Positions 1,820-50,862 of a stretch of DNA of 63,358 nucleotides are shown here, piece after piece. The translations under genes were made by a program, and so were the position numbers. How positions within the stretch are numbered: the first letter of the stretch is position 1; each line of letters starts with the position of its first letter. The notes beneath the pieces are model-generated. The model was not told where the DNA came from. It made no database searches and saw nothing but the letters and a program-made list of their open reading frames with translations. Source of the stretch: a virus (lineage: Duplodnaviria; Caudoviricetes); IMG/VR virus record IMGVR_UViG_3300044728_000197, positions 1-63,358 of that record, one strand, 5' to 3'.

Positions 1820-2682
1820 TTCATGGCTCCGTCGGCTGCTCGGATGAAAGCCGCCGCTGCCTGAGGGACGATGCAGTTTCCGTAGGCGCGCAGTCGTCCC
1901 ACTCGGGCGGTAGCCCCATGAGCCAGCGGGAATGTGCCGGGTTCAACTGGCCGACGGCGCCCGTCTTTGCCTTCGACCCACTCGCTAGCGGACCAAAAAG
2001 ATGAGCCGCGTTCGTCAGCTCTTCCCAGACCTTGCCCGGCCGCGCTCCAGCAGAACCTCTCGCATCGCTCGCCTTCGGCGTCGGCCACGCACAGAGTCGA
2101 GCCGCATCGAGCAATGTCGTCCCCTGATTGCCGGTCATCATGTAGCCGTGACGCGCCGAGTTCCTCGCGTCTTCCTTGACCGGCGTCGGCCCCGAAGTAG
2201 ACGCGGGGTCTGCCGTGGGGCGCGCCAACGCCTGCAGCTGGCAGATTCGCCGCCGCGACGGCGTAATCTGCTGCTTCCAGGTCAGCGCATACAGCATCGA
2301 GCCACGCGAGGCCGTCGCCTCCTGCAACTTGCTCCCCAAAGACAATTGCAGGCGCGCACTCGCGGACGAGCCGCTGCCATGCCGGCCATAGGTGGCGCTC
2401 GTCTTCATGCCCTTTGCCTTTCCCGGCAGTGCTGAAGGGCTGGCAGGGGCAAGAGCCTGTCCAAACAGGTCGGTCATCTGGCCATCCGGCCAGGCGCAGG
2501 GCGTAGCTCCAGACGCCGATGCCGGCGAAGAAATGGCACTGCTGGTATCGGCGCAGCTCGTCAGGCTCGAGGTCGACGATGCTTCGGCGATCGACGACTC
2601 CGGGGGCGATGTGTCCAGCATGAATGAGGTTCTCCAGCCATGTCGCGGCGTAGTCGTCGATCTCGTTGTAGAACGCGGTCAC
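1816..2682 (-). CDS. DNA (cytosine-5) methyltransferase, large subunit
   Basis: Motif I FFAGIG, motif [11 protein letters not shown], motif VI GEQV, motif VIII PHGRPR, motif [12 protein letters not shown]. Confidence 0.9.
1821..2621 (-). CDS. overlapping alternative-frame ORF, putative small subunit of the C5 MTase (true start uncertain)
   Basis: Fully nested, same strand, different frame; carries the motif-IX-like [18 protein letters not shown] that the main frame lacks. Confidence 0.6.
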
Positions 2683-3242
2683 GGCGCGCCCTTCTCGAGC
2701 GCCTTCAGCCGCGCCCGATAGTCGTCCCGGATCGCCTTCAGCTCCTCGGCCCGGTAGCGCTTCGGCTCATGCGGGCCCTCGAGCCAGGCGACATTGACGA
2801 CGCCGATGCGGCGGATCAGCTCGATGCGGAAGCGGATCAGGTTGCCGCTCAGGAAGTCGTTACAGCGTGAACATTGTTTGTGCACGTTCAGCGGCTCGAA
2901 GCGAAGCTCCGGCCGTGCGCCCACGGTGAGGTAGTGGCCAGCGTCCCACTGCGGCGCCGTCAACGTGCCGCAGGAGATGCAGGGCTGGTTCGCATCGCGC
3001 GCGCGGCACCAGGCGTTGAACGCCGTCTGCGCCTGCTTCGTCCAGTAGCTGAGCGGGCGCATCTCCTCGATCCGCTCCCGGATCCGCTTCTTCTCGGCTC
3101 GGGCCTGCTGACGGGCCAGGATCGGGACGCGGCGGGCGCAGCTCAGACCGCAGACGCGCTGCAGGGGCTGGCGCTGGTCGAAGGCGTCGCCGCAGACCAT
3201 GCAGGCCCGACGGCGCGGATCGGATATCGACGAGGCGATCAT
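2679..3242 (-). CDS. ninG: NinG/Rap-family recombination endonuclease
   Basis: CxxC...VC...AQTAFNAWCRARD..PCISCG...WDAGHY...LRF...NVHKQCSRCN..LSGNL. Confidence 0.88.
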   Translation of the reverse strand: MIASSISDPRRRACMVCGDAFDQRQPLQRVCGLSCARRVPILARQQARAEKKRIRERIEEMRPLSYWTKQAQTAFNAWCRARDANQPCISCGTLTAPQWDAGHYLTVGARPELRFEPLNVHKQCSRCNDFLSGNLIRFRIELIRRIGVVNVAWLEGPHEPKRYRAEELKAIRDDYRARLKALEKGAP

Positions 3243-3810: not shown

Positions 3811-4007
3811 CGGAACTCCCCGGGCGCCGTGTCGCGGTCGAGCGCGGGATGGTATTCGCGCACCTTCCGCTCTTGCGCGCTCGCCTGGCGCCGGCCGATC
3901 TCGAGCCCGGCCCGGAAGAACCGACGGCAGATGTCTCGCTGCCGGTCGCTGAGGTTGTGCTCGTGCGCCAGGGCGTCAAAGCTCGTCGGGGTGTCGTCGT
4001 CAGGCAT
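3807..4007 (-). CDS. hypothetical protein
   Basis: Coupled ORF. Confidence 0.55.
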   Translation of the reverse strand: MPDDDTPTSFDALAHEHNLSDRQRDICRRFFRAGLEIGRRQASAQERKVREYHPALDRDTAPGEFR

Positions 4008-4185
4008 GCGCGGGCTCCTCGTGCGCGTTCAGGTAGTCGATCTGTTCCGGGGTCAGCTGCTCGTTCTGCGCCAGCGTCTTCCTCGCCCAATGCAGCAGCG
4101 GGATCGTCAGCGGCGCGCCCTCGCGCTGGAAGCAGCAGAGCATGAAGGCGATCTCGATCGTCTCGCTGGCCAGGGCGGTTCTCAT
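4000..4185 (-). CDS. hypothetical protein
   Basis: Coupled ORF. Confidence 0.55.
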   Translation of the reverse strand: MRTALASETIEIAFMLCCFQREGAPLTIPLLHWARKTLAQNEQLTPEQIDYLNAHEEPAHA

Positions 4186-4433
4186 GGCGAAGGCCCGTCG
4201 AGGCGCTCGAAGTAGGCCCGGCCTTCCTGCTCGGTCTCGAAGAACTCAAAGGGGATGCCATCGTCGCCCTCGGCCATCTCCAGGAGCACCGGGACAGTCT
4301 CGCCCTTCTCGACCGCAGCCGCTCCGAGCAGCTCGCGGGCGAAGGCGATGACCTCCTCGTCCCGCGGGCGCATGTCGAAGGGGTCGAGGACTTGGTGCCG
4401 CTTCGCCATCGTGAGGATGTCGTCGTCGGTCAT
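4182..4433 (-). CDS. hypothetical protein
   Basis: Start re-called at MTDDDIL (ATGA overlap). Confidence 0.55.
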   Translation of the reverse strand: MTDDDILTMAKRHQVLDPFDMRPRDEEVIAFARELLGAAAVEKGETVPVLLEMAEGDDGIPFEFFETEQEGRAYFERLDGPSP

Positions 4434-4753
4434 ACCCGCACCGTTGCTTTCGGATGCGCGAGGCATGCCCCATGCAGCCATTCGAGGGTCTCGACAGCCC
4501 CGTCGTAGTCGCCCCAGCCGTTCGGCGGATTCAGGGCCTCATGGCCCGCCTTGTCGACTCGCATCCGCTCCAGGCCTGTCGCGACAATCGGCGCCGCTTG
4601 CGCCCCGGTCATGCCATCGAGATCGCGGAGCGGGCATCCGAGCGCACGCTGGAACATCGGCGCTAGGTTGTAGGTTGGATTGCGGTAATCGCCGGTGACG
4701 CAGGCCGGATACTCGCCGCCAGTGTCGATCACGAGACGCATGTCGTAGCTCAT
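4430..4753 (-). CDS. conserved phage hypothetical protein
   Basis: MSYDMRL...NPTYNLAPMF...LNPPNGWGDYDGA...HPKA is a motif set recurrent in phage proteins. Confidence 0.7.
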   Translation of the reverse strand: MSYDMRLVIDTGGEYPACVTGDYRNPTYNLAPMFQRALGCPLRDLDGMTGAQAAPIVATGLERMRVDKAGHEALNPPNGWGDYDGAVETLEWLHGACLAHPKATVRV

Positions 4754-4784
4754 GCCGCCCCCGCTGGCTTGCGCTTCGGGACGC

Positions 4785-4970
4785 TCATTGCAGCACCTGG
4801 GACGGAAGGAGCCAGTCGTAGGGCCCCGGCGCCGGAACATGATCCGCCGGCCTGCCGATCCGGCTCGAGATGTCGCCGGTGCTTCGCAGGGCGCGAGCGA
4901 TCAGCGCGCCCGAAATGTCCTCCCCGTCACGCGCGAGAGCGAGGAGGCGGTTCGCCTCGGCCTTACTCAT
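4785..4970 (-). CDS. hypothetical protein
   Basis: [10 protein letters not shown]...ALRSTGDI. Confidence 0.5.
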   Translation of the reverse strand: MSKAEANRLLALARDGEDISGALIARALRSTGDISSRIGRPADHVPAPGPYDWLLPSQVLQ

Positions 4971-5127
4971 GGCCGCCCGCCGCCAGATCGTGGCAGGCCG
5001 CAACCACGCCCGGGTCGGTCGTCGTGCCGCAGACGCTCGGCACCGACAGGCTCGGGAGCGCCGAAGCCCCGAAGACTGCCGCTGCCAGGAGAGCGCCGAT
5101 CGCGATGTAGGCCTGCCACAGCTTCAT
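4963..5127 (-). CDS. small exported/membrane protein with a Cys pair
   Basis: [23 protein letters not shown] is signal-like; its ATG overlaps the pilin stop (ATGA). Confidence 0.6.
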
Positions 5128-6035
5128 GGCCGGCACTGCGCAGGGCGGAACTTCGGCGCCAGCGTCCCGCCCGAGCAGGACCAATCGACCGACGACGGAG
5201 GAACCGTGCCCGCGGCAAGAGGAGCCGATGCCGAGCTGGGCGCCAGGATGATCGTATTCGCTCCCGTCGCGCCGCCGGCCTTGGGCGTGTAGGTGATCTC
5301 GACCTGCCCTGTCGTCGGCGCGATCGTGACGCTTGCGACGTTCGTGGTCGCGCCTGGCGCAGACCAGCCCGAGCCGAGATCGCTGGACCCGCTCGAGGCG
5401 TTCTCGGAGACGGCGACCTTCGCAGCTGCTGCGAGGGATAGGCCCTCGGTTACTCGGGCTCGGACGGTGTAGTCCTGATACGCAGGGAGCGCGACGGCGG
5501 CGAGGATGCCAATAATTGCCACCACAATCATGAGCTCGATGAGCGTGAACCCGAGCTGGACGGTCTTCCAGGATTTGTTGCGGACGATGCGATAGACGTG
5601 GTCGTTGGTCATGTTCATTTCCTTTGCGATATCGGACTGACGATGCCCCTGCGCGAAGAGGCGGCGGACTAGAAGGACGAGATCGTTCGTCAAGATTGCG
5701 TTGGGGTGCTTCTCTCCTCGCAACTTGATCTCCTTGTTCACACGACCCTTGCTGCTCGCGTCCCGCAGGTTGTCGCGCTGCGTCCCGATAAAGATGTGCG
5801 CCGGATTTACGCAGCCCGGGTTATCGCATCGGTGGCAGGCGTTCATCTCCGCAGGAATGGGGCCAACGGTTTGCTCGTAGAGCCAGCGATGCGCCAAGAC
5901 ATCGCGCGTTCCGTCGTAGAAGCCTCCGTAGCCGTACTGGTTTTTCCAGCCGGTCCACTCGATGCAGCCCGAAGGGTCGGGGCGACACTTCTCGTCGAAT
6001 CTGTCACGAACTGTCGTCGGTTTGCGCCCGCTCAT
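5124..6035 (-). CDS. HNH homing endonuclease fused to a type IVa major pilin (303 aa)
   Basis: Residues 1-~158: [33 protein letters not shown] plus an HTH. Residues 163-303: G|[36 protein letters not shown]...WSC...C. The start overlaps the upstream stop (ATGA). Confidence 0.9.
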
Positions 6036-6559
6036 AGATGCTCGCTCAGGTAGTCGGCGACCCGCTTGGCCGTCATCCGCATCGACCCCTCGAGCTTCGC
6101 GCGATCGGCGGCGGAGTCCGGAGGAGGATTCGCCTGGGCGTGCGCGATCGCCTGCAGCTGCGCCGCGCTGAGGCGCTCGCCGGCAGCCCGCTTCGCGAGG
6201 AGATCGTCCAGCCATGCGCGGGGCGTCCGGTCCTTCTGCATGTCGTGCAGGCGCTGGAGCTCGGCAGCGAGGCGGCGACGGTCTGGGACGACCGGCTTGC
6301 TTTTGAGGAGCGGCAGCGTCTCCGGCGCGGGCGGCGCGCGGCGGCAGATCTCCCGGAACTGGCCCGCCGTCGGCGGGAAGTCGAGCGGCAGGTTTTCGAG
6401 CGCGTAGTCGATCGAGTGCGCCGGGCAATAGGTCAGCTCCTTCTGCCAGTCCTTCTGAACGACCTCGGCGTCGACGCCGGCCCACTTTGCCCGCCAGGCC
6501 GAGCCATAGCGCGCGAGGAGGCGGGCGTGGATGATCTCAATCGTGGTCAAGTCGGCCAT
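6032..6559 (-). CDS. replication protein, lambda P-like (helicase loader)
   Basis: YGSAWRAKW...W..EL...[13 protein letters not shown]; lies downstream of the O-like gene. Confidence 0.65.
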
Positions 6560-6917
6560 GAGTCGGCTCCATGTCGATGATCTCTGCGCTGGGCTTCTCA
6601 GCAGCCCGGCCTCCGCCCCATCGGGCAGCGTCGGCGCGGACCAGGGCGGCGTCGCGCTCGCGGAAGGACAGGACGACGCCGTTCGCCTTGCGCTCCTGCG
6701 GCTTCGGATCGAATACGCCGGCCCAGCCCCACTCGACGGAATTGTCCAGCGCCTGGTTCGGATCGAGCCCGCGGAGCTTCATGTCCAGGAGCTTCTGCCG
6801 GATGATCTTCTCGGCGCGCGGCGTCATCGGCTTCTTGAGAATCTTACGAGAGGCGACGAAGCCGGCCCAGGCCTCGGCGTCGAGCCAGTCTCCGAAGAGG
6901 TCGAGGGTCTCGCTCAT
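6537..6917 (-). CDS. replication protein resembling the C-terminal domain of lambda O-like initiators
   Basis: WLDAEAWAGFVASRK..KKPMT...LDNSVEWGWAGVF. Confidence 0.65.
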   Translation of the reverse strand: MSETLDLFGDWLDAEAWAGFVASRKILKKPMTPRAEKIIRQKLLDMKLRGLDPNQALDNSVEWGWAGVFDPKPQERKANGVVLSFRERDAALVRADAARWGGGRAAEKPSAEIIDMEPTHGRLDHD

Positions 6918-7204
6918 TCGGCGCCGCGCGTGACGCGCAGGACCCACTGGCAGAGGAAGCGGATCTGGTAGGTCTCGATCTCGCCGTGGCCGGTCTTGGC
7001 CCACTCGTTGATCTCGATGGCCACTGCCCGAGCCTCTGCTGCGCTGATCGGGATAACGTCGAGCGGGGGCGGCGGAGGGTCTGGCGCGCGCTTCTCAGGC
7101 GGAGGCGTCATGTCCGTCGGCCGCCACGCCGGAATCGACTCGCCTCGATTCATCCGACGAGAGATATCCGTCTCGAATCGAGGACCCTTGAAGCCCTTGC
7201 TCAT
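6914..7204 (-). CDS. hypothetical protein
   Basis: Start re-called at MSKGFKG; purine-rich RBS upstream. Confidence 0.5.
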   Translation of the reverse strand: MSKGFKGPRFETDISRRMNRGESIPAWRPTDMTPPPEKRAPDPPPPPLDVIPISAAEARAVAIEINEWAKTGHGEIETYQIRFLCQWVLRVTRGAE

Positions 7205-7431
7205 CTCTTGCTCTCCCCTTTTCCGGGCAGGCTTGAGCGGTCCCAGCCTTAGCCGGGAACCTTCAGAGATCATCCGTTCAGGAATCGCTCGCCCGCCAGC
7301 CGTTCGGGTCGAGGGCGCTAGCTTCGCCACCCCCCTGCGCGCTGTCGCAGACCCTGAGCCACCGGTAGCGCTTCTCGCTGGGGCCGCCGTTGCTTTCATT
7401 GCCCGGCCACCAGCCAGTCCCGGAAAAGCAA

Positions 7432-7526
7432 AGGCCCTCGGTCTCTGCTCTCCCTGCTGGCACAGGCTGCCCATCGAAGGGCTGAGAGCAGAAGCCGAGG
7501 GCCTCGTGCCTCCACCGTGCCAGCAG
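7432..7526 (-). ncRNA. candidate c4/CI-like cloverleaf antisense RNA with adjacent target site
   Basis: 21-bp near-perfect stem (7432-7452/7484-7504) enclosing two hairpins; 7454-7463 is perfectly complementary to 7517-7526; strand inferred from the operon. Confidence 0.55.
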
Positions 7527-7551
7527 CGGACAGATCGGAGCATAGCGCAGG

Positions 7552-7806
7552 TCAGCCCGCGTTGAAAGGGGTCCGCCGCTTCGACAGCGGCCCGGCCTTG
7601 TGCTGCAGGGCGTTTGCGTTGGCTCGGGTGATGGCCAGGGCGGCGATCTGGGCGGGCGATGCCAGATACGGGCGATCGAGCGGGGTCGGGTGCCAGCCCG
7701 GGGGCCACTCGGCGCCTCGGACGGGATCGATCGGGAAGGGATAGAAGCGCCGGCCGGCTTCCCAGCGCTCGAGGATCAGCGCGGCGGCAGCTGCGGCGGC
7801 CGTCAT
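7552..7806 (-). CDS. hypothetical protein
   Basis: Start overlaps the cro stop (ATGA). Confidence 0.45.
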   Translation of the reverse strand: MTAAAAAAALILERWEAGRRFYPFPIDPVRGAEWPPGWHPTPLDRPYLASPAQIAALAITRANANALQHKAGPLSKRRTPFNAG

Positions 7807-7988
7807 GTCGGCGGCGCCGTGAGCCGCGAGCGCGGGAACCACTCGGGCCGGAGCTTGCGGAGCTCGTCGATGCGAGCCTCTGGCCAGCCGTTCTTCATCC
7901 AGCCCTGGACCGCCTGGCGCTTGAGCCCATAGGCCCGGGCGAGCGCGCTGACGGAGCCGGCCTTCTTCAATGCGGTTTCGATCTTCAT
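7803..7988 (-). CDS. cro: Cro/YdaS-like HTH regulator
   Basis: 61 aa, AGSVSALARAYGLKRQAVQGW...PEARI; first gene of the leftward operon. Confidence 0.85.
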   Translation of the reverse strand: MKIETALKKAGSVSALARAYGLKRQAVQGWMKNGWPEARIDELRKLRPEWFPRSRLTAPPT

Positions 7989-7996
7989 GGCCGGCG

Positions 7997-8025
7997 ATTC
8001 TGCCCGCTAGCTTGCGCCCCTGCAA
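7997..8025 (-). promoter_or_regulatory. sigma70-like promoter for cro (nearly leaderless mRNA)
   Basis: TTGCAG-N17-CAGAAT ending 8 nt before the cro ATG. Confidence 0.6.
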
Positions 8026-8481: not shown

Positions 8482-8531
8482 ATCGATCAACAACCATTTG
8501 GGTCGCTAGTCAGTGGCCCGGGAGAGCAGAG

Positions 8532-8699
8532 ATGAACGCAGCAGAGACGGTCGCCCTCTACGTCGGCGCCGACCCGAAGTACATCAAGGGCCGCATTGGT
8601 GCCGCGCTCATCCACATGAATGACGCGCGTCTAAGCGCCGAACAAGTCGCCTATTGGCAAGCCGTGGCCGATGGCTGCGCGCGTTTGCTCGCCGCGTGA
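8532..8699 (+). CDS. hypothetical protein
   Basis: GGAGAG RBS, MNAAETVAL. Confidence 0.5.
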   Translation: MNAAETVALYVGADPKYIKGRIGAALIHMNDARLSAEQVAYWQAVADGCARLLAA

Positions 8700-8706
8700 A
8701 CAGATC

Positions 8707-8964
8707 ATGAGCAGTCGATACGGCAAACGAGCCGCCGCGCATCAAGTCGCTGTCAACGCGATCCTGGCGCCCGCCCCGTTGGGGGGCATCAACCCGAACG
8801 AATCTGACCCGCTGGTGTTGTGGGCGGAGATTGCGCGCCTGCGCGCCGCCACGTGGGGGCCGCATGGCTATTCCTCATGGCAGGAAGCGGCCACAGCCGA
8901 GCGCATCCGTCGCGTCGAGGCAGAGCGCGCCCTCGCAGAAATGAAAAAAGGAGAGTCCGCATGA
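8707..8964 (+). CDS. hypothetical protein
   Basis: MSSRYGK...SWQEAATAERIRRV. Confidence 0.55.
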   Translation: MSSRYGKRAAAHQVAVNAILAPAPLGGINPNESDPLVLWAEIARLRAATWGPHGYSSWQEAATAERIRRVEAERALAEMKKGESA

Positions 8965-9128
8965 GCGCCACCCCCAACCCCCGCATCGGCCTAGATGTCC
9001 TCCTTGCCGCGTGAGCATTCCCGCACGCCCGCCCCTGCGTCCTACATCGCTAAGTGCGCTTGCCCTCAAGACCTGACTGCAAGCGCCGAATACCTTTCGT
9101 CCCCGCAACACTTGACGAGGAAACCCAG

Positions 9129-12580: not shown

Positions 12581-13525
12581 ATGGGAAACGAAGTGACAGA
12601 GGTGCGAATCGGCAGCGAGGGCGGCCGCGATGGGCACCTGCAGCAGGGCGCTATCGCTCAGCGCGGCGAGACGTTCAACCTGACGCCGAGGAACCTGAAC
12701 GAGGCGATGCAGTTGGCCGAGCTGCTCGCATCTAGCGAGTACGTCCCGAAAGACTATCGCGGCAAGCCCGGGAACGTCTTGGTCGCCGTGCAGTGGGGCC
12801 ACGAGATCGGGCTGAAGCCGCTGCAAGCGATGCAGAACCTCTCCGTCATCAATGGCCGCCCGTCGCTCTGGGGCGACGCCATGATCGCGCTCGTTCGCAA
12901 CTCGCCGCTCTGCGAGTACATCGTCGAAACCGAGGACGCCGCAGGGACCGCCTTCTGCCAGGTCAAGCGCCGCGGCGAGGTCGAGCAGGTCCGGAAGTTC
13001 TCGGACGCCGATGCGAAGAAGGCCGACCTGCTCGGCAAGGCCGGCCCCTGGTCGACGAGTCCGAAGCGCATGAAGCAGATGCGGGCCCGCGCCTTCGCGC
13101 TCCGGGACGTCTTCGCCGACGTCCTCAAAGGGATGGCGATGGCCGAGGAGGTCATGGACCTGCCGGCCGAGGGCACCGCGCCGACTCCGCTCGATCAGCT
13201 CGCCGGCGCAGCGCCCGCGGTGCCGAAGGAACTGCTCGACGCCGCGCAGAAAGCCGCAGGCGATGGCCGCGACGCCTTCGCGGCCTGGTTCAAAGACAAG
13301 CAGAACGGCGGCCAGACGACGAAGGTCGAGCGCGAGCTGCTGAAGTTCAGCCTCGACGATCTGAAGGGGATCGCGCTGCGGGCCGACGAGAAGCGCGCGG
13401 AGGCCGCGGCTTCGACGACGGCGGCCGCCGCCTCCGGCGAGCAAGTGGTGATCAATCCGAACACGACGAGCAGCGCCAGCGAGGGGCCGACCTTCGGCGA
13501 CGACTCGCTCGGCGGGCAGGCGTGA
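12581..13525 (+). CDS. RecT/Red-beta-like single-strand annealing recombinase
   Basis: VPKDYRGKPGNVLVAVQWGHEIGLKPLQAMQNLSVINGRPSLWGD...PKRMKQMRARAFALRDVFADVL; next to an exonuclease. Confidence 0.85.
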   Translation: MGNEVTEVRIGSEGGRDGHLQQGAIAQRGETFNLTPRNLNEAMQLAELLASSEYVPKDYRGKPGNVLVAVQWGHEIGLKPLQAMQNLSVINGRPSLWGDAMIALVRNSPLCEYIVETEDAAGTAFCQVKRRGEVEQVRKFSDADAKKADLLGKAGPWSTSPKRMKQMRARAFALRDVFADVLKGMAMAEEVMDLPAEGTAPTPLDQLAGAAPAVPKELLDAAQKAAGDGRDAFAAWFKDKQNGGQTTKVERELLKFSLDDLKGIALRADEKRAEAAASTTAAAASGEQVVINPNTTSSASEGPTFGDDSLGGQA

Positions 13526-46794: not shown

Positions 46795-49700
46795 TCAAAG
46801 GAGAGGAATAACGGCGGCGAGGAGCAGAAGGATCTCCTCGTCGTCCGATAGTTGGCGGTCGCCCGGCAGCAACGGCCTCGGAATCCGGACGCGGCGGCCG
46901 CCGGGGAATCCGACGATCACATCGGCTCCCGGCGTCGTGTTGACGATCGTCGGCGCCTGGCCCTCGATCGAGATCCGGGCCGGGTCGGGGACGAAGGTCG
47001 GCGAGTCGAGCAGCGTCGTCGGCGCGGCGCCGCTGATCTCGATCGCTCCCGCGCCAGGCTGGGCGACGATGCCGATCAGCGCTGCGGGCGCATGGCCCGA
47101 GATCGCGACAGCGCCCGCGTCCGGCTGGGCATTGGCGCCCTGGATCGCCTGCGGCGCGTGGCCGTCGATCGTGATCGAGCCGGCGGGCAGGGCGATCGCG
47201 GCGTCGCGGACGGAGCTCGGCGCCTGGCCCTCGATAGTGATCTGGCCCGCGCCCGGCTGGGCGGTGATGCTGACGAGCAGCGAGGGCGCGTGGCCCTCGA
47301 TCGCGATGCTGCCGGCGCCCGGGGCGGCCAGCGAGCCGACGAGAGCGGACGGAGCGAGGCCCGCGAGCGAGATCAGCCCCGCGGCGGGCTGGACGACGCT
47401 GCCGATGAGCAGGTCCGGAGCGAGGCCGCTGACGAGGATCGCCCCAGCGCCCGGGGCGAATGCCGCCGAGGTCAGCGCGATCGGCGCCTGGCCGCTGATC
47501 GTGATGCTGCCCGCGCCGGGCGAGACGATGGTGTCGATGACCAGCGCCGGCGCAAGCCCTGACAGCGAAATGGCGCCCGCGCCTGGCTGGGCAATCGTCC
47601 CGAGGACGAGCGTCGGCGCGAGCCCGCTGATCGAGACCAGCCCGCTCGGCGGCGTCGAGATCGCGCTCAGGAGGGCCGACGGCGCGAGCCCTTCGATCGT
47701 GATCAGGCCGGCGTCGGGCGCGACCGTCGTGTTCGAGGCGCTCGAGACGATCGCCGTCGGCGCCTGCCCCGCGATGACGATCGCGCCGTCCGCCGGCGTC
47801 GAAATGCTGCCGCGAATGGCTGCCGGCGCGAGGCCGGAGATGACGACGGCCCCGGCGCCCGGCTGCAGGACCGCGCCGCGAGCGAGCGATGGCGTCTGCC
47901 CGGAGACAAGGATCGAGCCGGCGCCGGGCTGGACGACCGTGGCGGCAAGGAGCGCTGGCGCGTGGCCCGTGATCGCCACCGTGCCGGCGCCGGGGGCGGC
48001 CACAGTGCCGAGGACCAGGGTCGGGCCCCGGCCATCTATCGAGATCGAGCCAGCGCCCGGGGTCGCGATGGTCCCGACAACCGGCGTCGGCGCGTGCCCG
48101 ACAAGGGCGACTGCCCCGGCTCCGGGCTGGACGACGACGCCGAGGCGGAGCGAGGGCGCGTAGCCCGTCAGCGAGACCTGCCCGGCGTCCGGCGCGACCG
48201 TCGTGTTTCCGGCGACCGAAACGACCGCGACGGGCGTCTGGCCGTCGATCGCGATCGAGCCGGCCGCAGGCTGGAAGACGCTCCCCCGCAGAAGCGTCGG
48301 GGCCTGGCCAGCGATGGCGATCGTTCCGGCGCCCGGCGCGGCGACCGTCCCGACTCCAACGGTCGGCGCGCGGCCCTTGATCGTGATGCCCGCGCCGATC
48401 GAACGAGCGAGCCACGAGTCAACCTGTCCGCCGTCGGTGACGAACAGCCCAGGCTGCCCGCCGGCGTAGACGCTGTCGGTGGCGGTGCCGACTAGGGAGC
48501 CTTCGTGATAGACCGAGAGCAGATCGTCGACGATCGTGAGCTTGACCGTCTGGCCGACCGTCCAAGACGGCGGGAACCAGACGCCAAGGACGGCCGAGAT
48601 CGCGCTGTTCGTGATCCGGACAAGCGTCAGCGGCGTGACCGTGTCGCCGTAGACGACATAGCCGTTCAGCGAGGTCCCGGATCCGCTCGCCCGGACCATC
48701 GGGCCCAACGATTTGTTGATCGTCGCGACCCCGATCGCGACCTCCGCCTCCTGATCGGGGGTAAAGCTGTCGGCATTCCAGTAGGCGAACTGGAACGCTC
48801 CGCCCGTGCCTTGCGCCGTGTTGCTGACGACCGAGGGAACGGCGACGCCGTCGGTGCCAGTCGTCCAGTTCGACCCAAGGGCGCCGTCGGGCCGGTTGAA
48901 GAGGTCGAACCTCTCGCTCGAGAAGACGATCCCGAGGTCGTGCTTCGGCGCCTGCCCGTCGACGGTGATCGACCCCGCGCCGGGCGTGATCGTTGTGTCC
49001 GTCGCCGAAGACGTCGAGACCGTCGGCGCCTGGCCGGCGATCGAGACCTGGCCGGCGCCTGGCTGAGCGACGCTGCCGACGACGCCGACTGGCGCGAGGC
49101 CCGCGATCGCGACCGCGCCGGCTCCTGGCGCGAGAACACTGCCGCGGAGCGCGGTCGGCGCGAGGCCGGAGAGATTGATCGAGCCCGCGGGCGGGCTGAT
49201 CGCGGTATCCGAGCTGCCCGTTCCTAGAACGACAGCGGGCGCGTGGCCTGTCAGCGAGACAGCGCCGGCGCCCACCGGGAAGCCGAACAACAGGGTCGGC
49301 GGCGGGCCGGTGATCGTGATCGCACCGCTCGCTGGCTCGAAGACGGAGCCGCGGAGCGCTGTCGGCGCAATGCCGGCGACCGTGATGGCCCCTGCAGGGA
49401 CGGCGATCGGCGTGCCGCGAACCAGAGCGGGCGTTTGCCCGGCGCAGGCAATCGAGCCGGCGCCGACCGCGATGATCGTGTTCTGGACGACCGCCGGCGC
49501 AAGGCCGGTAATCGTGACCGCGCCCGGACTCGGGCTGACCGTCGCGCTTGCGGTCGCGACGAGGATCGGCACGGCACACATGACGTTCGTCGTGCCAGTC
49601 CCCGCCCAGGCCGGTGAAATACTGGCGGTCCTGCCGGCCATGACGCCGCCCGCGAAGAACGCTGTGCTGTTCGTGCTGCCCCGGTGCAAAAGCCCGAAGT

Positions 49701-50862
49701 TTGCGAACCCCGACGACCCTGTTGAGCTCCCGAACGTCGCCATCGACGCCCACAGCAGATCATTCGGAGAGATCGTGGCCGTCAGCGTTGGAGCCGCCGC
49801 CGCCGCGTTACTGACCGACTGAAAGGTGCCGGTGAAGTCGCTCTGATTGACACCGAGTAGAGACGTCGCCACGCTCCGCATGGAGCCAATGGAGCCGGTC
49901 AACGTCACGACGACGTTGTTGGCTCCGGTAGCTGGCGCAATCAGAGAGTGAAGATAGACGTTGGCGACACCACCGCCGTTAACGGAGCCTTCCGACGCCA
50001 TCGACACGGCGTTGTAGGTCGTCCCCGTGACCGACGTGCCGGTGGTTTCGATACTGGACGACACCAGCAGGCCACGGTTACTCGCCGTGCTCGTCGTATG
50101 CGAGTACGTCAGCGACGAGACCGTGTTGCCGCGCGCCCGCGTTACGGCATCGACTCCGACGTCTATCTCAGCAAACCCGATCAGGACCGAGTTGCAATCG
50201 ACCGCCGCGAGCGTGGGGTCGCTGGCCGTGCTGCTCGTCGCGGTCTCGATCTTGAACTCGCCGCGGGCGCAGATGTTCGCCGCCGCGCCGCCCCCTGTTG
50301 AGTTCGAGCTTGTGTGCGTGAACGTCGTATACGCGGCGGTCGCCGTGTACGTCGAGATATTCGTCTCGCCCGCGGTCGCGCGGATGAAAAGGTGCTCCCG
50401 GTTCTCCAGGCTGGTGAGTTGAAGCGAGCCCGGGTCGGTGGCGCTCTGCTCTAGGTGCTTGACCTCCTCGACGACCACGAACTTCGCCGTGTTGCGGCTG
50501 AAGCGATGGCCCGTGCACGCCATCGCCAGCGACGAGGCGGAGTTGGTTTTTGTGACGACGACATTGCTGCCGCTCGTCAGTTGCGCCGTGATCTCGCTGT
50601 ACCAGACGCTGACGCCCGTGTGCGAGACCGTCGTCCCGACGTTCTGCCACTCCGCCGCCATCTTCCAGCTATTGCCGGCGGCGTCGGTAACGGAGTTAAT
50701 GGCCGAGTCGTCTCGGTTCGTCTGAACCGAGTTGTCGATGCCGATGACGAGAACGGCGAGGTCGCCGACGTTGATCGTGGCCGACGTCGCGAACGTCCAT
50801 GACGCGCCAGCGGTCGATCCTTGATTCGCGGTCGCGAACGACCCTATCGCCGCGAAGGCCAT
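46795..50862 (-). CDS. giant repeat-containing virion surface protein (1355 aa)
   Basis: About 31 repeats of PGAGxIxIxGxAP, S/T-rich N-terminal domains, C-terminal DDEEILLLL. Confidence 0.85.
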   Translation of the reverse strand: MAFAAIGSFATANQGSTAGASWTFATSATINVGDLAVLVIGIDNSVQTNRDDSAINSVTDAAGNSWKMAAEWQNVGTTVSHTGVSVWYSEITAQLTSGSNVVVTKTNSASSLAMACTGHRFSRNTAKFVVVEEVKHLEQSATDPGSLQLTSLENREHLFIRATAGETNISTYTATAAYTTFTHTSSNSTGGGAAANICARGEFKIETATSSTASDPTLAAVDCNSVLIGFAEIDVGVDAVTRARGNTVSSLTYSHTTSTASNRGLLVSSSIETTGTSVTGTTYNAVSMASEGSVNGGGVANVYLHSLIAPATGANNVVVTLTGSIGSMRSVATSLLGVNQSDFTGTFQSVSNAAAAAPTLTATISPNDLLWASMATFGSSTGSSGFANFGLLHRGSTNSTAFFAGGVMAGRTASISPAWAGTGTTNVMCAVPILVATASATVSPSPGAVTITGLAPAVVQNTIIAVGAGSIACAGQTPALVRGTPIAVPAGAITVAGIAPTALRGSVFEPASGAITITGPPPTLLFGFPVGAGAVSLTGHAPAVVLGTGSSDTAISPPAGSINLSGLAPTALRGSVLAPGAGAVAIAGLAPVGVVGSVAQPGAGQVSIAGQAPTVSTSSATDTTITPGAGSITVDGQAPKHDLGIVFSSERFDLFNRPDGALGSNWTTGTDGVAVPSVVSNTAQGTGGAFQFAYWNADSFTPDQEAEVAIGVATINKSLGPMVRASGSGTSLNGYVVYGDTVTPLTLVRITNSAISAVLGVWFPPSWTVGQTVKLTIVDDLLSVYHEGSLVGTATDSVYAGGQPGLFVTDGGQVDSWLARSIGAGITIKGRAPTVGVGTVAAPGAGTIAIAGQAPTLLRGSVFQPAAGSIAIDGQTPVAVVSVAGNTTVAPDAGQVSLTGYAPSLRLGVVVQPGAGAVALVGHAPTPVVGTIATPGAGSISIDGRGPTLVLGTVAAPGAGTVAITGHAPALLAATVVQPGAGSILVSGQTPSLARGAVLQPGAGAVVISGLAPAAIRGSISTPADGAIVIAGQAPTAIVSSASNTTVAPDAGLITIEGLAPSALLSAISTPPSGLVSISGLAPTLVLGTIAQPGAGAISLSGLAPALVIDTIVSPGAGSITISGQAPIALTSAAFAPGAGAILVSGLAPDLLIGSVVQPAAGLISLAGLAPSALVGSLAAPGAGSIAIEGHAPSLLVSITAQPGAGQITIEGQAPSSVRDAAIALPAGSITIDGHAPQAIQGANAQPDAGAVAISGHAPAALIGIVAQPGAGAIEISGAAPTTLLDSPTFVPDPARISIEGQAPTIVNTTPGADVIVGFPGGRRVRIPRPLLPGDRQLSDDEEILLLLAAVIPLL

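Follow-up and report, generated by a model that had tools for sequence, protein, structure and literature searches.

A tailed-phage gene that joins an HNH endonuclease in frame to a type IVa pilin

The fusion gene at the locus

The DNA analysed here, referred to as the window, is the whole 63,358-nucleotide stretch of IMG/VR virus record IMGVR_UViG_3300044728_000197 (Duplodnaviria; Caudoviricetes). On its minus strand lies a gene, P0001, in which an HNH endonuclease followed by a helix-turn-helix (HTH) region runs on, within a single open reading frame (ORF), into a mature type IVa pilin. The frame is free of stop codons for 303 codons and ends in a TGA at 5126–5124. An alternative automatic call gives a 453-amino-acid (aa) product from a GTG at 6485; the ATG at 6035, in contrast, aligns with the N-termini of all relatives and is the start used here. 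This ATG overlaps the TGA of the gene upstream in an ATGA at 6035–6032. The initial annotation of this DNA had described a stop-free 303-aa ORF coupled through an ATGA to a P-like gene, a description confirmed by the ORF scan and by reading of the sequence, and the positions it assigned to F163 (codon 5549–5547), E167, G162 and the cysteine pair C287/C301 were all correct. The parts of the gene are as follows.

5124–6035, minus strand: fusion ORF P0001, 303 aa plus TGA (ORF scan; start set by alignment with four relatives)
5553–6035, minus strand: nuclease half, residues 1–161 (Pfam, PHROG, invariant columns, AlphaFold2, Foldseek)
5897–5763, minus strand: HNH_3 core, residues 47–91 (Pfam HNH_3)
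5687–5583, minus strand: putative HTH helices, residues 117–151 (three helices in the AlphaFold2 model)
5610–5624, minus strand: possible internal start, comprising AAGGA at 5624–5620, 7 nucleotides, and the ATG of Met142 at 5612–5610 (sequence; also in the related gene L001)
5550–5582, minus strand: junction, R152–G162, where the nuclease's own C-terminal tail also resembles a leader
5127–5549, minus strand: mature type IVa major pilin, residues 163–303, 141 aa (Pfam, PDB matches, Foldseek)

The nuclease half

The HNH_3 core scores well above its Pfam cut-off (E 3.2e-9; 36.7 bits against a cut-off of 24.8 bits), and the PHROG HNH families match the nuclease half at E 3e-30 to 1e-22. P0001 carries the beta-beta-alpha-metal motif H-x-C-D-N-x-x-C-x-N-x-x-H ... 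N, with H68, C70, D71, N72, C75, N77, H80 and N89 as core residues. An AlphaFold2 (AF2) model built from a 50-row alignment reached a mean predicted local distance difference test score (pLDDT) of 94.4 and a predicted template modelling score of 0.57, the latter being expected because two domains sit on one long helix. In this model the nuclease is a small beta/alpha domain (residues 9–95) in which the strands and helix of the motif have pLDDT values above 95. The best non-pilin match in Foldseek was the homing endonuclease I-HmuI (1u3e), with E 0.019 and a probability of 0.96 at template modelling (TM) scores of only 0.20/0.33; I-PpoI was also matched. Several HTH families align with residues 121–160, all of them below their Pfam cut-offs (the best being HTH_23, 19.5 against 24.6 bits). 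The nuclease half is basic, with 26 lysines and arginines against 18 acidic residues. The view of this half as an intact HNH endonuclease with a C-terminal HTH, put forward in the initial annotation, holds for the endonuclease, whose HNH_3 match exceeds its threshold and whose catalytic residues are present; the three helices modelled behind them are a putative HTH.

This half resembles the free-standing HNH_3–HTH endonucleases of phages, of which I-HmuI is an example, in its conserved motif residues, its putative HTH and its ...SW-K-x-V tail, and its identity to HNH or homing endonucleases annotated in phages of Ralstonia, Pectobacterium, Mycobacterium and Gordonia is 37–42%. Unlike those enzymes, it has no stop codon of its own and runs on into a pilin. 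Site-specific DNA cleavage and homing would be its putative activities.

The pilin half

The pilin half is covered by two Pfam families, N_methyl at residues 160–183 (E 9e-8) and Pilin at 191–302 (E 1.9e-16), both above their cut-offs. The AF2 model places residues 165–214 (5543–5394) in a 50-residue helix, α1, topped by a head with a four-stranded beta-sheet (residues 233–290). The features expected of a type IVa pilin are found: a glycine at −1, phenylalanine at +1, glutamate at +5, and about 21 hydrophobic residues in the N-terminal part of α1 (α1N). The feature that is lacking is a short leader beginning with methionine; 162 residues, with two folded domains, precede the G/F cleavage site (the slash marks the scissile bond here and below). 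C287 and C301 would form the C-terminal disulfide. A sequence search of the PDB returned pilins only (24 sequences, PilA and PilE; best 9ime, 9.9e-20). Foldseek matched PilA of three Burkholderia species (9jrv, 9jw7 and 9ime) at E 2.6e-11 to 1.3e-9 with TM scores (target) of 0.69–0.71, led by 9jrv (E 2.6e-11, TM 0.71), and PAK pilin was matched as well. Pfam, sequence and Foldseek thus agree with the full 141-aa mature pilin, complete with E5 and a C-terminal cysteine pair, that had been claimed for this half.

In genomes of the order to which Polaromonas belongs, the six best pilin matches show 62–67% identity to the pilin half. Together with the Burkholderia PilA folds, the high G+C content and the soil source, these pilins point loosely to a betaproteobacterial host.

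The junction and a possible internal start

Residues 152–162 can be read in two ways, as the initial annotation had noticed, and comparison with nuclease tails and with pilin leaders supports both. As a nuclease tail, the segment follows the habit of the family: a tryptophan lies within the last 20 residues of 30 of 32 nuclease relatives, 20 of which end two to four residues beyond it, and typical ends, in free-standing and tandem relatives, are ...TWKHI or ...WKHV. As a leader, it resembles the ordinary pilins returned by the same searches, which start MKxxQKG/FTLIELM. The junction of P0001 reads ...SWKTVQLG/FTLIELM, with W156 (5570–5568) at −7, where the leader methionine usually stands, and G162 (5552–5550) as the −1 glycine. 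Other fusions, introduced below, have SWASVQLG, SWRTVSQSG, TWKTAESG and, in P0379, SWRPLSMQRG at the same place. The junction pattern occurs once in the window against an expectation of 0 in 100 shuffles. The AF2 model has neither helix nor strand at residues 152–164 (13 residues), of which 11 (152–162) precede the cleavage site; pLDDT across 152–162 is about 86–93 in 10-residue blocks. Residues 140–162, the flank ahead of the hydrophobic helix, carry a net charge of +3.

Within this region lies a signal that allows a different account of how the pilin is made. Initiation at Met142 would yield a prepilin with a positively charged 21-aa leader, and the pilin would then be produced alone and processed in the normal way; the long form would be a nuclease with an unavoidable pilin tail, and a working pilin would not depend on its being cut. 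An AAGGA stands 7 nucleotides before the ATG, with the same spacing in both DNAs seen (the window and L001). M142 is invariant in the four closest fusions (A2), whereas most free-standing nuclease relatives have valine or isoleucine there, within a G[VI]S motif. The two more distant fusions, P0379 and P0284, have valine at this position and keep a methionine nearer the site, at −4 ('MQRG/F') and −10 ('MGQSRRKSLIG/F'), respectively. Leaders of 15–30 aa occur in type IVb pilins and in some of type IVa, according to the available part of PMC4471445. On the other side, the AAGGA is encoded by K138 and E/D139 and may simply follow from conservation of the peptide AK[ED]xxM, and a scan of 4700–7300 found 0 sigma-70-like promoters inside the gene, a weak negative. 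Moreover, the long form would still be made with the site intact and would still be a peptidase substrate, so that internal initiation and cleavage of the long form are compatible. Internal initiation, which the initial annotation touched on only briefly, is a serious rival; as a full explanation of the gene, we consider it somewhat unlikely.

Authenticity of the fusion

Continuity across the junction, set beforehand as a check on the fusion, was borne out. A 9,979-bp Logan contig from run X1 spans 4900–6600, and a Logan contig from run X2 spans 4900–5687, including the junction, each with 0 differences and 0 gaps; X1 and X2 possibly represent the source sample, and these contigs count as independent assemblies, not as independent samples. 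An assembly chimera formed at the conserved 5' region of a pilin gene would be the obvious artefact, and one observation is of the kind it would produce: short divergent contigs pile up on 5464–5553, which encodes α1N, and mark it as a metagenome repeat. These contigs carry 4–9 differences in 35–70 bases and offer no alternative path. Against a chimera stand the contigs of two runs, which cross the junction without a difference, and, as much the stronger evidence, five other assemblies, which repeat the architecture; we regard the chance of an artefact as practically negligible.

Run X3, a freshwater dataset from another study, contains two 151-base pieces identical to parts of the region, 5783–5933 in the HNH core and 6036–6186 at the end of the P-like gene, with the junction lying outside both. 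A very close relative of this phage region exists elsewhere.

A small family of fusions

The same architecture was found in P0002 (314 aa, ENA), P0003 (298 aa, Logan), L001 (10001–10900 of an IMG/VR contig, 299 aa) and P0379 (300 aa, Logan). Full-length identity to P0001 is about 52–54% for P0002, P0003 and L001 and 44% for P0379, and HNH_3, N_methyl and Pilin occur together in the relatives scanned with Pfam. The initial annotation had asked for proteins with these three domains together; our sequence searches yielded four further fusions at 44–54% identity. P0284 (276 aa; Logan, contigs up to 10.5 kb; 32% identity) is a looser variant: its N-terminal part is cysteine-rich and has no HNH_3 match, and it continues with an HTH resembling the one in the HNH family, followed by ...IAMGQSRRKSLIG/FTLIELM and a pilin. 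These proteins confirm a real, small, conserved family of phage genes with a nuclease–pilin architecture for which we found no earlier description.

Conservation is concentrated on the residues that the two halves would need. H68, C70, D71, N72, C75, N77, H80 and N89, along with most of α1N, are invariant in the four closest fusions, and G162, F163 and E167 are invariant in all six, P0379 and P0284 included. By segment, pairwise identity is 53–65% in the HNH core, 49–72% in the linker and HTH, 59–67% in α1 and 21–35% in the pilin head. For the one pair with DNA, the window and L001, the ratio of nonsynonymous to synonymous rates (dN/dS) is about 0.28–0.29 in the HTH and α1 segments; in the HNH core the proportion of nonsynonymous differences (pN) is 0.27, and synonymous sites are saturated. 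The dN/dS of the pilin head, about 1.15 for the same pair, was left unused, the two heads being of different types and their alignment unreliable.

This conservation bears on the possibility that the gene is a neutral or decaying accident, in which a free-standing endonuclease gene arrived directly upstream of a phage pilin gene, its stop codon disappeared, and one or both halves are now being lost. In phages, free-standing HNH genes are frequent and mobile (1,349 of 50,697 GenBank phage records match the nuclease half), stops are rare in DNA of 68% G+C, where long open frames persist, and the family is very small. Five members at 44–54% identity nevertheless keep both halves open with significant Pfam matches, their catalytic and cleavage residues are invariant, and dN/dS is about 0.28–0.29 in the HTH and α1 segments. 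The fusion also lies at different loci in two tailed phages—in L001 its neighbours are a tail collar fibre gene (phrog_523, E 3e-37) on one side and an endolysin gene (phrog_7, E 1.6e-47) on the other—and has therefore moved as a unit. An accident of this kind appears highly improbable.

The heads tell a different story from the rest of the gene. Behind the nuclease stand pilin heads of at least three unrelated types: that of P0001 is 59% identical to the head of P0006, an ordinary pilin, and shows no significant similarity to those of P0003, L001 and P0379; that of P0002 is 48% identical to another ordinary pilin, P0373; and those of P0003, L001 and P0379 form a third type (35–49% identity). 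Two of the head types resemble ordinary pilins more than they resemble one another, in a comparison set of 240 pilins that came from our own searches and over-represents relatives of P0001. The HTH segments of P0001 and P0002 are the most alike (72%), and the heads of these two proteins are unrelated. The simplest reading of these alignments is that a constant HNH–HTH–α1N module has been placed before different heads by recombination in the DNA encoding α1N.

Rarity of the architecture

Searches of larger collections returned few further cases. A blastn search in distant mode with 4000–8000 of the window found no match among GenBank phages, and in a tblastn search of P0001 against the 50,697 GenBank phage records, 0 covered at least 80% of the query. 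The specific junction pattern occurred in one stretch of the viral contigs, that of L001, and in 0 metagenome contigs. A loose pattern gave 12 stretches with 13 pilin sites in viral contigs, one of them a true fusion, and an intermediate pattern gave 49 stretches with 58 pilin N-termini in metagenome contigs, 0 of which had an in-frame HNH. Genome contigs held no fusion among the 80 loci kept of at least 600 stretches. In 401 genomes of the Burkholderiales order to which the Polaromonas locus belongs, 36 genomes had a match at E up to 1e-25, none spanning both halves. In a representative library of 1.84 billion proteins, only P0002 aligns over both halves among the best 150. Relatives of the pilin are themselves frequent in IMG/VR (258 confirmed stretches, of which 80 were kept).

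Two broader ideas were dropped. HNH and pilin genes are not neighbours in general: in a tblastn search of residues 1–158 against 160 loci, an HNH directly precedes a pilin only in L001, and the HNH-like appearance of L032 (9038–9583) was not confirmed at E 1e-3. Nor are the long open frames that precede other pilins fusions, since 13 of 13 examined have a normal methionine-initiated leader. All 10 long nuclease relatives examined are tandem HNH_3 repeats, and fusion to foreign domains is therefore not a habit of the nuclease family. The literature consulted likewise holds no endonuclease–pilin fusion and no leader beyond about 30 residues; the supplements of PMC12952977 (Table S3, Fig. S6), which might bear on novelty, lie outside that coverage. 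The statement that no system with this architecture has been described agrees with these literature and database searches.

Other unusual pilin frames were seen along the way. P0004, P0078 and P0091 read as tandem pilins, and P0269, P0287 and P0368 likewise have two pilin N-terminal motifs per frame; all six may be real fusions or products of gene calling or assembly. P0348 and P0377 constitute a second 'long-leader' family, in which a shared N-terminal region of about 113 aa without a Pfam match is followed by a full Pilin domain; their junctions are ...SKTRG/FTLIELM and ...DKFRG/FTLIELM, with the nearest methionine 49 and 20 residues upstream, respectively. Four clusters of 408–411 aa (P0297, P0298, P0331 and P0365) combine Peptidase_M48 and Pilin in the precomputed Pfam list; P0297, the only one rescanned, is missing the G/FTLIE site and would be an uncleavable membrane protease–pilin fusion. 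Finally, L038 (6056–6811, IMG/VR) encodes a pilin in which G/FTLIELM comes after an acidic extension that has no methionine for 41 residues (...GDDDAPDEENEPSTKQAG/F). Its first 100 residues have no PHROG match, and it follows a 552-aa ORF that by eye resembles a large terminase.

Genomic context

The window comes from a linear record with a CheckV completeness of 81% and a G+C content of 64–73% in 2-kb windows, and its PHROG matches describe a lambdoid-like layout. The fusion occupies the early region, with the replication genes on one side and NinG on the other, among the following features.

2679–3242: NinG/Rap (PHROG)
4963–5127, minus strand: downstream 54-aa ORF with a hydrophobic N-terminus; a second ATGA, its ATG overlapping the fusion TGA
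6032–6559, minus strand: 175-aa gene upstream, weakly matching the P-like helicase loader phrog_109 (E 0.004)
6537–7004: O-like replication protein, next upstream (phrog_678, E 1.7e-16)
12581–13525: RecT (PHROG)

Because of the two ATGA overlaps, the P-like gene, the fusion and the 54-aa ORF look translationally coupled. The 54-aa ORF has no PHROG match and no counterpart adjoining the L001 fusion. Elsewhere, PHROG matches identify a large terminase (TerL), portal, major head protein, tape measure, tail protein and endolysin-like protein, while a 1,355-aa ORF in the structural region (46795–50862, minus strand) has no PHROG match at E up to 0.001. A prepilin peptidase (Peptidase_A24) was not found in the 63-kb record. 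An internal promoter was considered and dropped: a sigma-54-like motif is no more frequent than chance predicts (42 matches, 47 expected; a weak negative). No RNA dataset was listed for the fusion stretch.

A relative of the P-like gene occurs on the same fragment as a pilin gene of the ordinary kind. In a phage fragment (L030, on the contig of L174), a P-like protein 61% identical to that of the window is encoded about 5 kb upstream of a stand-alone pilin gene (8506–9036) whose product starts MKRSVG/FTL. About 220 bases downstream of this pilin gene is a 100-aa ORF that is HNH-like by eye.

A proposed two-part precursor

Prepilins are inserted into the membrane by SRP (signal recognition particle) and Sec, with the hydrophilic leader in the cytoplasm and α1N spanning the membrane, and are cut by a peptidase acting at the cytoplasmic face, for which G-1 is absolutely critical (PMC4471445, PMC10191384). 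Leaders are 6–26 aa long, and under 10 aa for most type IVa pilins (PMC4471445).

We propose that P0001 encodes a two-part precursor in which an I-HmuI-like HNH–HTH endonuclease replaces the prepilin leader and the host prepilin peptidase separates the halves, a reading suggested by sequence comparison and given a probability of roughly 0.45. The α1N segment would act as a signal anchor for SRP/Sec insertion, so that the basic nuclease would stay cytoplasmic and the pilin head would project into the periplasm. Host prepilin peptidase, an enzyme that the phage record lacks, would then cut after G162 on the cytoplasmic face, and this single cut would yield a free 18-kDa nuclease and a mature phage pilin. 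By analogy with prophage pilins, the latter would join or perturb the type IV pilus of the host, with superinfection exclusion as the most likely role. The cut would play the part that splicing plays elsewhere: the nuclease gene sits inside the pilin frame, and the pilin would not be destroyed.

Several features of the protein fit this scheme. The +3 flank and the 11-residue segment modelled without helix or strand make the proposed topology and access by the peptidase reasonable, and since that segment exceeds a normal type IVa leader, the enzyme could plausibly reach the bond. Because no stop codon lies between the halves, every nuclease that is translated carries a pilin, and the conserved active site means that the fused or the released state would be compatible with nuclease function. 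Of the interpretation offered in the initial annotation, the fusion itself stands, being real and kept across about 50% divergence with its catalytic and G-1/F+1/E+5 residues and its hydrophobic α1N intact; cleavage by PilD, release or gating of the nuclease and any jamming of the pilus belong to a mechanism that we infer.

A number of points weigh against the proposed cleavage. Its support consists of sequence comparison and predicted structure. The 162-aa 'leader' is about six times the longest cited, 26 aa, in the available part of PMC4471445, and we found no report, within the parts of the literature available, of a prepilin peptidase accepting a folded domain as leader. Internal starts at M142 in four members, at −4 in P0379 and at −10 in P0284 could supply the pilin with the long form left uncut. 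α1N and G-1 could have been kept by repeated recombination with ordinary pilin genes and not by selection on the fusion. The five or six members form one clade, and their conservation does not amount to many independent observations; DNA context was seen for two of them only.

The precursor might also stay whole. As an uncleaved bitopic protein it would serve either as a nuclease tethered at the cytoplasmic side of the type IV pilus platform, where it attacks entering DNA, or as a 'poison' prepilin that titrates the peptidase or the platform and stops piliation, in both cases excluding rival phages that depend on the pilus. The predicted topology is the same as that of the cleaved precursor, a bulky folded domain near the site may hinder the peptidase, and inhibition of pilus assembly has been proposed for truncated PilA-like proteins of phages (PMC12952977). 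Yet G-1, which is needed only for cleavage, is invariant in six of six fusions, and E5 together with the complete, well-folded head and cysteine pair of P0001 exceeds what an anchor would need. We therefore judge an uncleaved product distinctly unlikely.

If the precursor is cut by the host peptidase, its nuclease may have a particular target. It could be a homing endonuclease directed at the 5' ends of pilin genes, carried as an in-frame leader that the prepilin peptidase removes; the very highly conserved DNA encoding α1N would be the recombination handle and perhaps the target, and the nuclease would be released only in cells with active pilus biogenesis. Such homing would explain why at least three unrelated heads stand behind one module and why the position of the gene differs between phages. 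As a specific proposal drawn from these comparisons, it is unlikely.

Relation to known systems and implications

Pilins encoded by phages, termed P-FimU and P-PilA, become incorporated into host pili and block rival phages (Sztanko et al. 2026, PMC12952977); the same paper reports P-PilA genes from both prophages and lytic phages. P0001 is like them in being a pilin gene that is carried by a tailed phage and resembles bacterial pilins. It differs in that those proteins are pilin-sized or truncated, none being described with an enzyme as leader in the available text of PMC12952977. The location of an endonuclease gene inside another frame recalls inteins, introns and 'ShiLan', an HNH element inserted in frame into a phage methylase (PMC11855218, available part), in all of which the product of the interrupted gene is presumably not destroyed. 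Unlike in inteins and introns, however, the nuclease here is N-terminal and its removal would fall to a host signal peptidase, an analogy that we infer; no intein family appeared in the Pfam results (11 matches at E up to 1), and no Rfam search was made. With type IVb and other long-leader prepilins P0001 shares a class III signal peptide, G-1 and a hydrophobic α1N, but its leader has 162 aa and two folded domains, compared with at most 26–30 unstructured residues (PMC4471445), and its mature part is of type IVa by Pfam and fold.

The membrane arrangement itself has precedents among bacterial regulators and scaffolds. ToxR, CadC and RodZ each have a DNA-binding domain in the cytoplasm, a single membrane helix and a further domain in the periplasm. 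The uncleaved precursor shares this topology by prediction, with no sequence relationship to them.

If the long form is cut, P0001 would be the first known case of a class III signal peptidase liberating a folded cytoplasmic enzyme, the accepted length of a leader would grow about six-fold, and endonuclease genes would have a third way, besides introns and inteins, of residing inside another frame. The proposed scheme, if true, would also add a major-pilin example, in an unusual form of delivery, to the competition between phages that is fought with pilins, and would provide a natural substrate with which to probe the tolerance of prepilin peptidase upstream of G-1. Even if only the internally initiated pilin matters, an overlap of a nuclease tail and a pilin leader in the same frame, kept over about 50% divergence, would be an instructive case of phage gene overlap.

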